A DNA stretch of 64,000 nt from Dehalococcoidia bacterium (GTDB lineage Bacteria > Chloroflexota > Dehalococcoidia > UBA2979). Below, one piece after another: positions 1 to 35,262 of the stretch. The notes beneath the pieces are model-generated. The model had not been told where the DNA came from and did no database searches. It saw only the letters and a list, made by a program, of their open reading frames with translations. The stretch covers positions 2,560,001-2,624,000 of the forward strand of contig OZ253555.1 in NCBI GenBank assembly GCA_965262725.1, read 5' to 3'. The first letter of the stretch is position 1. The number at the start of each line of letters is the position of its first letter. The position numbers were made by a program, and so were the translations under genes.

Positions 1-275
1 TCAACAGGATCCAGTCGGTGAACCCCGAACTGGTCGCCATCGAGGCGCGCCGTCTCGCCGACCGCAGGCCACCAGACGCCGCCGTCGAGAGACCGCACCT
101 GGAGCGCTACGACCGACCTGCCCCGCTCCTCGATGGCTACGATGCGCTGCTCTCGGGTGATTCCCGATGGCCCGGCACGTCGCCGGGCGGGCGCTCCCGC
201 GCTCCGCGGTCTGCCGAGAACGCGTCGCACACCACCACAACCGCCGTCACCGCTGCGGTGTCGACGGCACGCTGA
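1..275 (+). CDS. istA: IS21 transposase IstA, C-terminal part (partial at window edge)
   Basis: Same sequence as the C-terminus of the 27680..29314 ORF. Confidence 0.9.
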   Translation, partial: NRIQSVNPELVAIEARRLADRRPPDAAVERPHLERYDRPAPLLDGYDALLSGDSRWPGTSPGGRSRAPRSAENASHTTTTAVTAAVSTAR

Positions 276-291
276 CCACAGGAGGCACCCG

Positions 292-1074
292 ATGACAGCA
301 CCCCTCACCGACCAGGCCGCGGAGCTGACAATCGAGGCGATCTGCCGCGAGCTCCGTCTCCCCACCGTCAGGAAGCAGGCGCTCCCGCTCGCCGAAGCCG
401 CGGTCCGAGACCGGATCACCCATCTGGGCTATCTCGCCGAAGTGCTGGGAGCCGAACGCGATGACCGTGAGGAGCGGCGCCGTCAGCGCCGTATCGTCGA
501 GGCGCGGTTCCCGCGTTTCAAGTACCTCGCCGACTTCGACCTCGAGGCGGCGCCGACAGTCGACGCGCCGGCGCTCGCCACGCTGGAGCGCTGCGACTGG
601 GTCGAAAGGGGCGAGCCCGTCGTCCTGCTCGGTGACAGCGGCACCGGGAAGTCACACCTGCTCATCGGCCTCGGCATGGCCGCCTGCCACCTGGGGCTGC
701 GCGTGCGGTACATGACCACGGCCGCCCTGGTGAATGAACTGGCCGAAGCGTCGGATGATCGCGCGCTCTCACGCCTCGTCGCCCGCTACGGCCGCCTCGA
801 CCTGCTCTGCCTGGATGAGTTCGGGTACGTCCACCTCGACCCGCGCGGTGCCGAAATGCTGTTCCAGATCCTGACCGAGCGCGAGGAACGGGCATCGGTC
901 GCCGTCGCCTCCAACTCCCCGTTCTCCGAGTGGGGCCGCATCTTCACCGACCCTCGTCTCGCCGCGGCCGTCGTTGACCGCCTCACCTACCGTGCCCATA
1001 TCATCGAGACCGGCACCGAGTCCTACCGGCTCCGGGCCTCGACCTCCCCGAGAGGAGGTGCCCCAACGACCTGA
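292..1074 (+). CDS. istB: IS21 helper ATPase IstB
   Basis: AGGAGG RBS before ATG 292; Walker A GDSGTGKSHL, Walker B LLCLDEFGY, DRL motif. Confidence 0.93.
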   Translation: MTAPLTDQAAELTIEAICRELRLPTVRKQALPLAEAAVRDRITHLGYLAEVLGAERDDREERRRQRRIVEARFPRFKYLADFDLEAAPTVDAPALATLERCDWVERGEPVVLLGDSGTGKSHLLIGLGMAACHLGLRVRYMTTAALVNELAEASDDRALSRLVARYGRLDLLCLDEFGYVHLDPRGAEMLFQILTEREERASVAVASNSPFSEWGRIFTDPRLAAAVVDRLTYRAHIIETGTESYRLRASTSPRGGAPTT

Positions 1075-1141
1075 TCCCGGTCCCCGGGGGTGGGGCCAGA
1101 TCAGAGGATCAAAGTGGGGCCAGATGTAAGCATCATTCCCA

Positions 1142-2756
1142 GTCCCGGTCCAACCGGTGCAGGTAGACATTGGCCAGCAGCGGGGACATCACCCCGCCCT
1201 GCGGCGTACCCGTCGCGCTGTGCTGCACGACCCCCGACTCCATCACACCGGCACGCAGCATCGCCCGTACCAGCTTCAGGAGATTGCGGTCGCATATCCG
1301 TTCCTCGACGGCCGTCATCAGACGGTCGTGTAGGGTCAGGGGCTGGCGCGGTGCGAGCCGTAGGCGGTGGCGCATCAGTTCCAAGCCGGTTTCCCGGTGG
1401 TGCCCAACTCCACGGCCATAGCAGCGTCCGTCTCCAGCCCCTGCCACATCGAACCGGACGTGAGGTTCTCCCTCATCCGGCTCACCGATGCCCTTCACCA
1501 GATGGCATGCAGCGCTCCCCACAACGTGGGTCGTGCCTTGGCCAGCCGGTACAGCATGTGCGGAGAGCCTCGAACCCTACCAAGTGGTTGCTAGCCCCGA
1601 GGGGCACTCACCAGTCCACACCCCCAGCAACATGCACGGACAAAGTAGGGGTCCTTCCCATCACCGGCGGTTATGTTGTCCGTCCGGCTCCAGCGGTACT
1701 ACGACCCCCTCCGCCACCCTTCCGGCTGGCTGTCCACTTCCCGGCTCTGACCGGTTATAGGACGCCTCGCTCCGACGCCCTCTCACAGGGTGCCGGGCCG
1801 GGGAGGGCTTCTCCGGTTCCCGTCGCTACCTTCCGTACGTTCCACGTCCCATACGCCGGGAGGTTTCTTGAGGCTGCATTCCAGGATCTTCACCTCGTCC
1901 ATGGCCTTCGCCCTGACCACCCGGGCTCGGCTCCTCCTTGGTCCTGTCAATAGACAGGCGAGTCTCACGGCGCGGCAGACTTCGCGTCATGCTGCGGACC
2001 GCACGTTTGCTCCCCCTCATAGGGCTCTTGACGTCGGGCTTCGACGCAGACCGTTTCCCGTCCACGCCGCCGACCTGCTAACGGGCCTCCTGACAGTTAC
2101 CCGTGCCGGACTCTCACCGGCTGGCAGCAACGAGCATGTCTCCGGACCGGTCACGTCATCACGTCACCACCCCTTCGACTTCCGGACGCACGCGGTATCG
2201 ACTCGAAACACGAGGCGATGTCCGTCTCCACTACCCACCGCCTGCCCCGCCACGCCTCGTCAATGAGGACCTGCAGGGCGTCATGGGCCGAACGCTTCGG
2301 GCGGAAGCCGAAGCTGCATGGCAGGAAGTCGGCCTCGAAGACCGGCTCCGTCACGAGCTTCAGCGACGCCTGCACGATGCGGTCGCGGACCGAAGGAATC
2401 GAGAGCGGGCGCTCTTCCGACCGACCGGGCTTGGGTATCCAGACCCGGCGGCTCGGCTGCACCCGGTAGCTTCCCTCCTTCAGTTCCGTGGCCAGTTCAT
2501 CCAGCAGGCGCTCCACGCCGTAGCGCTCGACCTCGGCGAGCGTGACGCCGTCGATACCGGCTGCGCCGCGATTGCGACGCACCTGCTCCCACGCGCGCTC
2601 CAGAATGTCTCTGCGATAAACCTTGTCGTAGAGCGCATGAAAGCGTCTATTGGGGTCGGCCTTGGCCGCCCGGTAAAGCGTGCGTTGTAGTGTTCGGACC
2701 TTGTCTTGGATGGAGTTAGCCGCTTGGGCACTCACCGATTCATCCCTACTCCCCAC
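1142..2756 (-). pseudogene. ltrA: Group II intron reverse transcriptase/maturase, split (2756..2192 + 1329..1142)
   Basis: RT motifs GAAGIDG, IPKPG..RPLSIP..RDRIVQ, SFGFRP, DIASCFESIP|HDRL and GTPQGGVMSPLLANVYL; removing 1330..2191 restores the frame; truncated by IS21. Confidence 0.9.
1330..2191 (-). mobile_element. ORF-less group II intron (inner intron of a twintron)
   Basis: 5' GTGCG at 2191; domain V GAGCCGGATGAGGGAGAACCTCACGTCCGGTTC near 1483..1451; 3' end ...CCTGACCCTAC at 1330; only short RT remnants in domain IV. Confidence 0.9.
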
Positions 2757-3307
2757 GCGTGAGCAAAGCAGGGGTCCTTCCCATCACCGGCGGTTGTGTT
2801 GTCCGTCCGGCTCAAGCGGTACTACGACCCCCTCCGTCACCCTTCCGGCTAGCTGCCCACTTCCCGGCTTTGACCGGTTATAGGGCACCTCGCTCCGACA
2901 CCATCTCGCAGGGTGCCGGGCCGGGGAGGGCTTCTCCCGTTCCCGTCGCTACCTTCCAAACGTTCCACGCCCCTTACGCCGGGAGGTTCCTTGAGGCTGC
3001 AGCGCAACGCGCATTCAGGATCTTCACCTCGTCCATGGCCTTCGCCCTGAATTGCCGGGCTCGGCTCCTCCACTATCCGTTAACGACGCGGCAGGCTTCG
3101 CTTGATGCTGCGGACCGCTTGGTTGCTCCCCCTGATAGGGCTCTTGACGTCGGGCTTCGACGTGGACCGTTTCCCGTCCGCGCCGCCGACCTGCTAACGG
3201 GCCTCCTGACAGTTACCCGTGCCGGACTCGCACCGGCTGGCAACGACGAGCATGTCTCCAGACCGGTTACGTCATCACGTCACCCGCCCTTCGACTTCGG
3301 GACACAC

Positions 3308-3353
3308 CAACCTCGCCGGCTATCTCAATCGCATTTCCAATTCAGGACACTAG
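3308..3353 (+). mobile_element. IS630-type right end (host site of the outer intron)
   Basis: CAACCTCGCCGGCTATCTCAATCGCATTTCCAATTCAGGACACTAG matches the ends of the MITEs at 21930..22116 and 25217..25402; encodes ...NLAGYLNRISNSGH*, typical of an IS630 transposase C-terminus. Confidence 0.85.
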
Positions 3354-21929: not shown

Positions 21930-22116
21930 CTAGTGTCCCGAGTTGCAAATGCTGAAAACAATCGCACCGAGCCTCGCAGGCCTGGTCCGCTCAGTGGAGG
22001 CTTGGGTCGCAACTGGAAACGAGCACCGGAGGCGCTTCATCTGGCACAAGTCCGCGGACCAGATCCTTGACAACCTCACCGGATATCTCAATCGCATTTC
22101 CAATTCAGGACACTAG
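21930..22116 (+). mobile_element. IS630-derived MITE (~187 bp)
   Basis: Ends CTAGTGTCCCGAGTTGCAAATGC / GCATTTCCAATTCAGGACACTAG; internal remnant FIWHKSADQILDNLTGYLNRISNSGH. Confidence 0.85.
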
Positions 22117-33345: not shown

Positions 33346-35262
33346 TTCGCGGTAGGGATGCCGGTTGCCCGGCACCCCCCGCACAGATCCGGACGTGCCC
33401 TCTCGGGCATCCGGCTCCTACCTCAAGTGCGTGACGGCAAATCGCTCCGCAGGCCACGGGTGAAGGATGGAGATTCGGGGCCAGTGTTTCTGGCACAGGG
33501 CAAGGATGCGCTCCCACGTGAAACGGTCGCGCTGCGACCGCCGTCGGAGAACGCGCAGCCAGAGCCGCTTCACGAAACGAACAAACCGCGTGAGCGCCGG
33601 CGAGCTGGTCGGCACCGCGTAGTAGCCAAGCCACCCACGCAGTACCCGCCCCAGCCACTGCCCCGTCGTCACGGGGTTGTCGTGCATGCGCCGCCACAAC
33701 TCGGCCTTGATGACCTTCAGCGTCCGGCGCATCCGCTTCGCAACGGGCTTGCGCCCCAGCCCGAATCTCCCGTCGCGTCGGGTCCGGCAGTAGTGCGTCA
33801 TGCCGAGAAAGTCGAACGTTTCCGGTCGGCCCTCCCCGCGCTTCCGCCTGTTCGCCAGCGCGAACCTGCCGAACTCAAGTAGACGGGTCTTCTCCGGGTG
33901 CAGCTCCAGCCCGTAGGCCGCGAACCGCTCCCGGAGTGCCTCCATGAACCGCACCGCATCGCTGCGGTGCTGGAAACCCAGGACGAAGTCATCGGCATAC
34001 CGCACGATGTACGCCTCGCCCCGGACCTCCCGCGGTCGCCACTCGCGCGCAAACCAGTCGTCGAGCACGTTGTGCAGGTACACGTTCGCAAGCAGCGGCG
34101 ATATCGGCGCCCCCTGCGGCATCCCCCGCACGAAATCGACTTCCGGCTCCGCGTCCATGACGCCGACGCTCAGCCACTTTCGTATCAGGCGCAACACCCG
34201 CTGGTCCCCGATGCGCATCTCCAGAAACGACATCAGCCGCCCCCGGTCGATGCTGCCGAAGAACTCCCGGATGTCCACCTCGACAATCCAGCTGACCTTG
34301 CGCCGTTCGACCGCGTAGGCCAGTGCGTCCAGCGCGTCATGCGCCGAACGCCCCGGCCTGAAGCCATGCGAGAAGCCGTAGTAGCCCGATTCGTAAATCG
34401 GGTTCAAAAGATTGTCCACCACCGCCCGCTGAACGATCTTGTCCTCCAGCGAGACGATACCGAGCGGCCGTATTCCCCCGTCCGGCTTGGGTATCTCTAC
34501 CCGCCTGACGGGCTTCGCCCGGTACGCTCCACGGTGTACGCGGCCATGCAGGTCGAGCAATCGCTCGTCCAGCCCGTCCCCGTATTCTCGCCACCTCACC
34601 CCGTCCACGCCCGGAGCCGCATCCCGCTTCAACGCGAGATACGCCTCCCGCAGCGCCTCCGGCGTGATGTGGTGCAAGAGCGCGGTGAGTTTCTCTCCCG
34701 GCTTCCGTTCCACGAACTGCCGTATCCTCTCCGCTCCGGGTGACACCGCACCCCGACTCTGCGTCCGGACCGTGCCGGTGCTTTGAGGATTCCTCTCGGT
34801 TGGGGCCCTTTGCTCCAGCGACTCCGCCGGGGCTCGCGCCCCCTTGTTCGCCGCCTTCATCGCTCGTACGGCCCCATCAGACTGCTGCGCATCGTTCATC
34901 ATCGGCTACGGTTTACGTCCCTTCCCGACGCGGTCCCGGCGTACGACTCGTCGGGACAACGCGCAGCTCTCCCAAGTCCCGGCGATAGACGTGTGTGCGT
35001 GCATGGGGTCTTCGACACCGTGGGGCCCGACCACGACTCGCCAGTAGCGCCGTCGCCGGTATTGCCTTCGACCAATCCAAGAGCCTCGGCACCCCAAATG
35101 GCCCTTTCGATGCTCATTAGCCCCGCCCGCACACCCCGCTGCCGACGCTTCACAAGCCGCCTCGCGACGACCCGCGCACGGCTCGCGGAATGACATGAGT
35201 GGCTAGCTCTTTGCCATAGAGGACTTCCACCTCCTGCCTACTCGCCAGTTAGCCTGGCGCTC
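33346..35262 (-). mobile_element. Complete group II intron inserted in the IS1380 right IR
   Basis: Boundaries fixed by comparison with the empty IS1380 end; 5' GAGCGCCAGG; domain V GAGCCGGATGCCCGAGAGGGCACGTCCGGATC; 3' ...CCCTACCGCGAA. Confidence 0.88.
33418..34902 (-). CDS. ltrA: Group II intron reverse transcriptase/maturase, no endonuclease domain
   Basis: APGVDG, IPKPDG, GFRPG, PQGAPISPLLANVYL, YADD and FDFLG motifs. Confidence 0.95.
   Translation of the reverse strand: MMNDAQQSDGAVRAMKAANKGARAPAESLEQRAPTERNPQSTGTVRTQSRGAVSPGAERIRQFVERKPGEKLTALLHHITPEALREAYLALKRDAAPGVDGVRWREYGDGLDERLLDLHGRVHRGAYRAKPVRRVEIPKPDGGIRPLGIVSLEDKIVQRAVVDNLLNPIYESGYYGFSHGFRPGRSAHDALDALAYAVERRKVSWIVEVDIREFFGSIDRGRLMSFLEMRIGDQRVLRLIRKWLSVGVMDAEPEVDFVRGMPQGAPISPLLANVYLHNVLDDWFAREWRPREVRGEAYIVRYADDFVLGFQHRSDAVRFMEALRERFAAYGLELHPEKTRLLEFGRFALANRRKRGEGRPETFDFLGMTHYCRTRRDGRFGLGRKPVAKRMRRTLKVIKAELWRRMHDNPVTTGQWLGRVLRGWLGYYAVPTSSPALTRFVRFVKRLWLRVLRRRSQRDRFTWERILALCQKHWPRISILHPWPAERFAVTHLR

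Follow-up and report, generated by a model that had tools for sequence, protein, structure and literature searches.

We analysed a 64,000-nt stretch of the genome of a Dehalococcoidia bacterium (Chloroflexota; GenBank assembly GCA_965262725.1, contig OZ253555.1, positions 2,560,001 to 2,624,000), hereafter the window. On its minus strand, the reverse transcriptase (RT) gene of a group II intron is interrupted by a second, closely related group II intron of 862 nt without an RT open reading frame (ORF). This inner intron is very probably a non-autonomous element that has lost its RT, was retargeted into the RT genes of its relatives, and borrows their enzyme. The anatomy of the nest, its boundaries, the numbers of copies, the complementarity of the inner intron to its targets and the co-variation of the pairing segments were all observed directly.

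The inner intron (1330..2191, minus strand, GUGCG...CCUAC) begins with GTGCG at 2191, ends with CCTAC at 1330, and interrupts an open frame between ...FESIP and HDRLM.... An initial annotation of the window, made from the sequence alone, had described this arrangement as a twintron, i.e., a complete intron within another, whose exact removal restores the outer RT. Its coordinates were all correct (GTGGT at 1920..1916 and ACCGC at 2196..2192 for the inner intron, CAATT at 3054..3050 and GGTTG at 3312..3308 for the outer one), and four independent results agree on the restored frame. In TIGR04416, the NCBIfam profile for the RT/maturase of group II introns, the two halves of the RT match contiguous parts (positions 2-137 and 140-352); in Pfam RVT_1 they match positions 1-83 and 90-204, with GIIM coming next. 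An uninterrupted homologue of 2073 nt is encoded in G003, a genome of the same genus, and its 472-residue RT frame (86% identical) reads ...DIVSCFESIPHDRLM... without a gap across the insertion point, where the sequence of this relative is CFESIPHDRLM. Contigs of the public run X8, for which the library type is not recorded, join 1329 to 2192 and thus skip exactly 862 nt; this junction confirms the boundaries and cannot be taken as spliced RNA. Finally, the 862-nt boundaries are identical in 24 copies of the genome.

The window lies in a genome assembled in a single contig (3.67 Mb, 70.6% GC, estimated completeness 91.55%). Searching this genome for other copies, a check proposed in the initial annotation, revealed 28 inner-type copies. 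Full-length copies of 862 nt accounted for 24 of these and were all 100% identical (blastn); the other four were truncated or interrupted. An Rfam scan gave 44 matches of RF02003, i.e., 28 of the inner type, 12 of the outer type and four of a third type. Thirteen inner copies were found in the 12 introns of the outer family, one site having a head-to-tail pair, and three at the same codon of the third intron family, which is ~80% identical to the outer one. The 12 copies outside this RT site were encoded in the RT gene of another family (one copy) or elsewhere (11 copies). We used the RT joined in silico as a tblastn query: the RT genes were split at residue 197/198 in all 12 members of the outer family and in all three of the third family, and no match with at least 70% identity crossed residue 197/198 in the genome. 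Hence, this genome has no intact related RT gene. Exact removal of the inner intron gave an open frame of 461 codons in seven of the 12 outer-family twintrons. The tandem pair of identical inner introns in one RT site (genome 549500-551223, outside the window) is what the homing of a second copy into the 5' junction of a filled site would produce.

The inner intron was not found at high identity among 40 relatives. RT-encoding homologues with 78-84% identity were present in three of them (G003, G008, and G018), and G016 had a weak match of 57 nt to the domain V (D5) region. The exact 35-nt arm with the second exon-binding site (EBS2) of the inner intron had no match when one genome per species was searched, own genome excluded.

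The two ribozymes are close relatives, as the initial annotation had supposed: their first ~630 nt, covering domains I to III (D1-D3), align at 90% mean column identity. Its proposal that the inner intron was retargeted is reinforced by the distribution of the differences in D1, which cluster at two loops. One is an arm with an indel of 18 nt; in the other, a hairpin loop of 9 nt, four bases differ. The latter loop, closed by GCCC/GGGC in a hairpin predicted from an alignment of three sequences, contains the EBS1 of the inner intron (GUGGU, 1916..1920, minus strand). GUGGU pairs at all five positions with ACCGC, which occupies positions -5..-1 of the RT site. The EBS2 (GACUCG, 1959..1964, minus strand), assigned from its complementarity to CGAGUC and its place in the hypervariable arm of the alignments, pairs at all six positions with CGAGUC at positions -14..-9. 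Both targets lie in the 5' flank of the inner intron (2192..2205, minus strand, positions -14..-1). In the outer intron, the same alignment columns as GUGGU hold the EBS1 CAAUU (3050..3054, minus strand), which pairs five out of five with GGUUG, two of the pairs being G-U. The EBS2 of the outer intron, CGGAUA (3074..3079, minus strand), was identified by its match to the 5' exon: in most outer copies this exon has UAUCCG at positions -15..-10, a Watson-Crick match of 6 bp, and in the outer copy of the window it has UAGCCG, which pairs at five of the six positions.

We then compared the inner intron with the sites occupied by its copies outside the RT site, since insertions at sites not complementary to GUGGU had been named in the initial annotation as evidence against retargeting. 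All 12 sites pair with GUGGU at four or five of the five positions. They all have a CGAG(U) motif upstream and an NCYGC-like pentamer at positions -5..-1. With the spacing fixed, the 12 sites form on average 8.8 of the 11 EBS-IBS (intron-binding site) pairs, compared with 4.85 (standard deviation 1.6) at 200,000 random genomic positions, of which only 1% reach at least nine pairs. The complementarity of these 12 targets is therefore far beyond chance. Position +1 is occupied by A in the RT site and in seven of the 12 others. We could not call whether these ectopic insertions lie sense or antisense to genes, since in this GC-rich genome long open frames occur on both strands.

The co-variation of EBS1 with IBS1 was compared in five lineages: the inner intron, the outer intron, the third family, and the homologues of G003 and G018. 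In a fixed register, the EBS1 of these lineages form five, five, four, four, and four of the five pairs with their own exon, and zero to three with the exons of the others, as expected from the co-varying EBS1/IBS1 initially reported. A matrix with free register and G-U pairs was discarded because it did not discriminate: the GGUUG exon pairs with many loops. Beyond what had been noted before, EBS2 co-varies with IBS2 as well. The longest Watson-Crick matches with the own exon are 6, 6, 6, 5, and 5 bp, those with other exons are mostly 3-4 bp, and the own exon is uniquely the best in four of the five lineages. Two columns of the GCAAACGUGCGG segment were tried as EBS3 against the +1 base in the five lineages, and neither was consistent.

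The inner intron derives from an RT-encoding intron by deletion, as had been proposed: remnants of the RT frame remain at both ends of its domain IV (D4) and ~1.22 kb between them are gone. It keeps ~85 nt of the 5' end of the frame, where the GGUGAGUGCCC segment is found together with a stretch that shares 84% identity with the codons for ...TLQRTLYRAAKADP..., and ~30 nt of the 3' end. The D4 remnant is ~115 nt long, and positions ~656-1878 of the outer intron are absent. The inner and outer introns are 86% identical in D1-D3 and 89% identical in D5 and domain VI (D6). This makes the inner intron a sister lineage and rules out a fresh deletion of the outer intron.

The ribozyme of the inner intron has a GUGYG 5' end (GUGCG, 2191..2187) and matches RF02003 (group-II-D1D4-4, gathering score 49 bits) at 1987-2123 on the minus strand with 102.8 bits. 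A more permissive scan with RF00029 (D5-D6, gathering score 40 bits) gave a match at 1330-1485, and the alignment ends exactly at 1330. D5 (1451..1483, minus strand) is matched by three D5 models, RF00029 and plastid ones, and forms a canonical helix with two compensatory changes among three lineages. The RNAalifold consensus predicts D6 (1333..1447, minus strand) as a helix of ~115 nt that has GAAA at its tip; the A at 1336, which lies 7 nt from the intron's 3' end, is bulged. Compensatory changes affect the predicted pairs 49-158 and 53-154 in the lower stem and 96-111 near the tip; pair 98-107 shows a one-sided change from CG to GU. The D6 of this lineage is unusually long, the hairpin in the Rfam model being short. 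A D6 and a 3' end are mimicked ~87 nt upstream of the true end by a short internal hairpin ending in GCUAC or CUAU. With this hairpin, which the third family has not conserved, the outer intron reaches 41.5 bits with RF00029. The 3' end is set at 1330 by the DNA boundaries. A minimum-free-energy fold of the whole intron (z-score -2.3) was not used to assign domains. The ORFs overlapping the inner intron in the ORF list, themselves outside the Pfam scan, are all short (61-129 aa).

The 5' part of the outer intron (2192..3307, minus strand) includes D1-D3, the start of D4 and the RT codons up to residue 197, as delimited by RF02003, RVT_1, and TIGR04416. It begins at 3307 with GUGUG and matches RF02003 at 3103-3239, on the minus strand, with 95.3 bits. 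Its RT has RVT_1 and GIIM domains only: a Pfam scan of the 461-residue frame showed no endonuclease domain. The closest named plasmid-borne RTs, from Streptomyces and Rhodococcus, are 56-61% identical. The outer intron is inserted antisense at the 3' end of a transposase gene, 16 codons before the stop. This transposase has 380 residues (DDE_3, HTH_32/HTH_29), and we take it to be IS630-like. The 5' exon (3308..3322, minus strand) contains IBS1 at 3312..3308 and IBS2 at 3322..3317, and contigs of the runs X2 and X3 show an empty outer-intron site starting at 3308. In the genome, 12 such targets are occupied and 14 with an intact IBS are empty. Two of the empty sites are inside the window, near 22070 and 25263.

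The insertions are biased in orientation. By the usual rule, we took the minimum of the cumulative GC skew, near 0.40 Mb, as the origin of replication and the maximum, near 2.51 Mb, as the terminus. Relative to these, 25 of the 28 inner copies are co-oriented with fork movement, although nested copies are not independent of their hosts; among the copies outside the RT site the number is 11 out of 12. One of the exceptions is within ~26 kb of the skew maximum. Co-orientation places the intron in the strand serving as the lagging-strand template. The lack of an endonuclease domain and the strand bias together fit fork-dependent mobility of the kind described for RmInt1.

These observations suggest the following scenario. 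An RT-encoding ancestor would have lost ~1.2 kb of D4, giving rise to the non-autonomous inner intron. Its EBS2 (GACUCG) and EBS1 (GUGGU) would direct reverse splicing into DNA with the sequence CGAGUC-N3-ACCGC; in the relatives of the inner intron, this sequence codes for F-E-S-I-P-H, a conserved stretch within the RT domain. Because the target lies within the RT domain of its relatives, the inner intron is found in every RT gene of the two families; more rarely, it would enter look-alike sites elsewhere. An identical inner intron in two host families that are only ~80% identical points to independent insertions. Since the inner intron encodes no protein, the RT/maturase must be borrowed, and since the closely related RT genes are all interrupted, a functional enzyme could come from them only through transcripts that have lost the inner intron by splicing. 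As in the case of RmInt1, replication forks probably provide the priming of cDNA synthesis, and this is the explanation we propose for the orientation bias. We infer splicing in vivo, the supply of the enzyme in trans and this mechanism of priming from the genomic data.

The initial annotation had proposed that production of the maturase would depend on splicing out the inner intron. Such a dependence would apply to seven other copies, in which the frame is restorable, and fails for the copy of the window, where an IS21-like element cuts the RT as well (see below). It is conceivable, though rather doubtful, that the inner intron is an obligate hyperparasite gating two families of retroelements, with the enzyme made only after its own splicing. 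If so, there would be a self-reinforcing loop, in which no enzyme leads to no splicing and no splicing to no enzyme, and this loop could act within a lineage as an on-off switch for the activity of retroelements. It would also explain why 14 good outer targets stay empty when the RT site is filled in 15 cases out of 15, a difference suggesting that the helper is throttled.

Several observations weigh against the view that the inner intron parasitises the interrupted RT genes. There is no RNA evidence of a spliced junction: the junction skipping 862 nt occurs only in X8 and could be the DNA of a relative with an empty site. No junction was found in X1, a metatranscriptome, or in X2, presumed to be RNA, but these runs cover short pieces only and are evidence neither for nor against splicing. 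At fixed spacing, the EBS2 score is low at three of the 12 other sites unless a shift of 1-3 nt is allowed, because their CGAG(U) motif is shifted by that distance. The EBS2 arm of G003 scores 5 and 6 with the exons of other lineages, so that its own exon is not uniquely the best. EBS3/IBS3 could not be assigned consistently, as no single column co-varies with the +1 base in the five lineages. The RF00029 score of the inner intron, 37.5 bits, is below the gathering score because its D6 carries an insertion of ~100 nt. The genome encodes twelve contiguous RT genes of an unrelated family (RF02005), 37-40% identical to the outer RT, which in principle could supply the protein. Finally, the outer copies differ at three sites in 2074 nt and the inner copies at none in 862 nt, too few to separate repeated homing from the copying of whole twintrons; a test of both models by the density of single-nucleotide polymorphisms had no power.

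This last point bears on an alternative that we take seriously without favouring it, in which the inner intron was inserted once in an ancestor and the twintron was then amplified as a unit, either by retrohoming of the outer intron with the inner one aboard or by movement of the host insertion sequence (IS). In that case the RT site would be saturated through common descent and not through efficient re-invasion. The position of the inner intron is indeed the same in 12 out of 12 outer copies, these are 99.7-100% identical to each other, and composite mobility is named by Mohr et al. as one possible route (PMC2882425). Yet an identical inner intron also interrupts all three RT genes of the third family, and the tandem pair and the 12 other EBS-matching sites indicate that it clearly moves alone. 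Besides, the host IS copies carrying the outer intron show at least three flank variants, and unit copying would still require an RT, hence either the inner intron's splicing or a foreign helper.

It is unlikely that the helper is such a foreign enzyme, i.e., that the RF02005-type RTs or self-splicing make the inner intron independent of its own excision from the interrupted gene. The frames of these RTs are contiguous, but their identity to the outer RT is low, and the D1-D4 model that Rfam assigns to their ribozymes is a different one. Moreover, the inner intron retains the 5' D4/ORF-start segment of its own lineage, the usual maturase-binding region. Some intron-encoded proteins (IEPs) of Thermosynechococcus elongatus do act on several introns, yet the promiscuous ones named in that study are 87% identical and act on closely related introns (PMC2882425). 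We regard as quite improbable that the copies are dead relics, left over from a burst in the past and spread further through recombination or gene conversion. IS elements or other introns do break many copies, that of the window included, and the 14 empty outer targets with intact IBS could be read in the same way. Against this, not a single difference separates the 24 full-length inner copies along their 862 nt and seven twintrons have a restorable frame of 461 codons, both of which suggest very recent activity, and precise boundaries at 12 dispersed EBS-matching sites are not the product of recombination. An active non-autonomous intron that borrows the RT of its relatives accounts best for the data.

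The arrangement belongs to a known kind, represented by TeI3/TeI4 of T. elongatus and by the introns of Methanosarcina, and differs from them in the site within the RT domain and in the occupancy of 15 out of 15. Bacterial twintrons and ORF-less bacterial group II introns are both described as rare (PMC4424553, PMC4649490). According to a review from 2015, bacterial ORF-less introns nearly always occur alongside related introns, the IEP of which may work in trans; twintrons are known from bacteria in several cases, and Methanosarcina introns have repeatedly homed site-specifically into other group II introns (PMC4424553). The review cites Dai & Zimmerly 2003 (RNA 9:14), whose title names homing into related intron ORFs. 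In Methanosarcina acetivorans, ORF-less and RT-encoding introns occur together as they do here (PMC4424553), and the tandem and three-level nests of our genome resemble what is described for this species. In contrast, the nests of M. acetivorans, an archaeon, reach up to five levels and lack coding exons.

The closest parallel is TeI3 in TeI4 of T. elongatus, where, as described in PMC2882425, an ORF-less derivative lies in the frame of the outer IEP, inner copies are identical, EBS have diverged between families, and an insertion sequence is also targeted. Mobilisation in trans by the IEP of the outer intron was demonstrated by experiment in that system (Mohr, Ghanem & Lambowitz 2010, PMC2882425). 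However, the inner intron of T. elongatus lies between the first two ATGs, so that the IEP may be made from the second ATG without splicing, and two TeI4 introns have continuous ORFs (PMC2882425). Here, the insertion is in the middle of the RT domain (TIGR04416 position 137/140), which leaves no bypass, and none of the 15 related RT genes is continuous. The lineage and the host differ too, since the introns studied here are of the RF02003 type, lack an endonuclease domain and reside in a genome of 70.6% GC.

RmInt1 of Sinorhizobium meliloti also has an IEP without an endonuclease domain and a homing site in an insertion sequence, ISRm2011-2 (PMC1802570, PMC8914252), and it inserts into the lagging-strand template at replication forks (PMC8914252). 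Likewise, our outer intron lies in a DDE_3/HTH transposase gene, and the copies in this genome show the matching orientation bias. The abstracts on RmInt1 make no mention of a natural ORF-less hyperparasite (PMC1802570, PMC8914252). Trichodesmium erythraeum offers another bacterial twintron, for which RNA analysis showed sequential splicing in vivo, the inner intron first (PMC4649490). That twintron interrupts the gene of a conserved host protein (PMC4649490), whereas our outer intron is antisense in a transposase gene and lacks a host coding exon. In plastids of Porphyridium, two different outer introns carry an inner intron, and the D4 site is the same in both (PMC4476101). Our literature search, not designed to prove absence, returned no account of the elements of this organism.

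The window and its genome thus add an example, and establish no new principle. The system is unusually complete for a natural one, with a non-autonomous intron in 28 copies and two families of helpers wholly interrupted at a motif of the catalytic domain. It also offers 12 ectopic insertions that expose the rules of targeting, and a further intron family that targets D5. It would allow to test how parasitic introns exploit or throttle their helpers, and whether the supply of RT through twintron splicing limits spread.

The twintron of the window is itself doubly broken, by the inner intron and by an IS21-like element. The outer RT frame runs from ~2756 to 2192, resumes at 1329, and is cut at 1137/1136. 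The segment 1137..1329 (minus strand), the 3' exon of the inner intron, encodes RT codons 198-262 (tblastn) and is 100% identical to positions 1-193 of the canonical copies. Positions 1..1136 (plus strand) are the right part of the IS21-like element, with an IstB ORF at 133..1074 (Pfam IstB_IS21, E 1e-60). The whole insertion is 2621 nt long, has canonical positions 181-193 on both sides, and is thus flanked by a 13-nt repeat of intron sequence. The remainder of the outer intron lies outside the window (genome 2558515..2557738) and is 100% identical to the canonical copy; a seeming identity of 88% for its RT part was an artefact of the alignment. The IS21-like element, with the end sequence TGGGAATGATGCTTACATC..., recurs where other intron copies are broken, e.g., at genome positions 409808, 1591543, and 291404.

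Two other loci of the genome have complex structures. At L003 (genome 1522300-1526000), the RT gene of another family is interrupted by an inner copy that uses a different motif and lies just before YGFSHGFRPGRSAHD; this RT gene is also broken by a DDE_Tnp_1 transposase element. L002 (genome 734423-736345) is a three-level nest: an RT-encoding intron of the RF02005 type (D1D4-6) is inserted in the D5 of an inner-type intron, between ...GGAUGAGGG and AGAACCUC..., which is itself in a third-family intron. At locus L015 of G008, a genome from another genus, an RF02005-type intron interrupts D5 at this position too. Other copies of the RF02005 family in G000 use a different target, ...TAAGCCCTGATCCA|CCGAAG. 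The window has a full-length intron of this type with a contiguous RT gene (33346-35260, minus strand), one of ~12 in the genome. As for the natural setting of the inner intron, a 263-nt contig of X1, which derives from a sponge, is identical to the part of it at 1778-2040 of the window. It hints at transcription and at habitat, with DNA carry-over possible. The same run holds several D5-only pieces with three differences.

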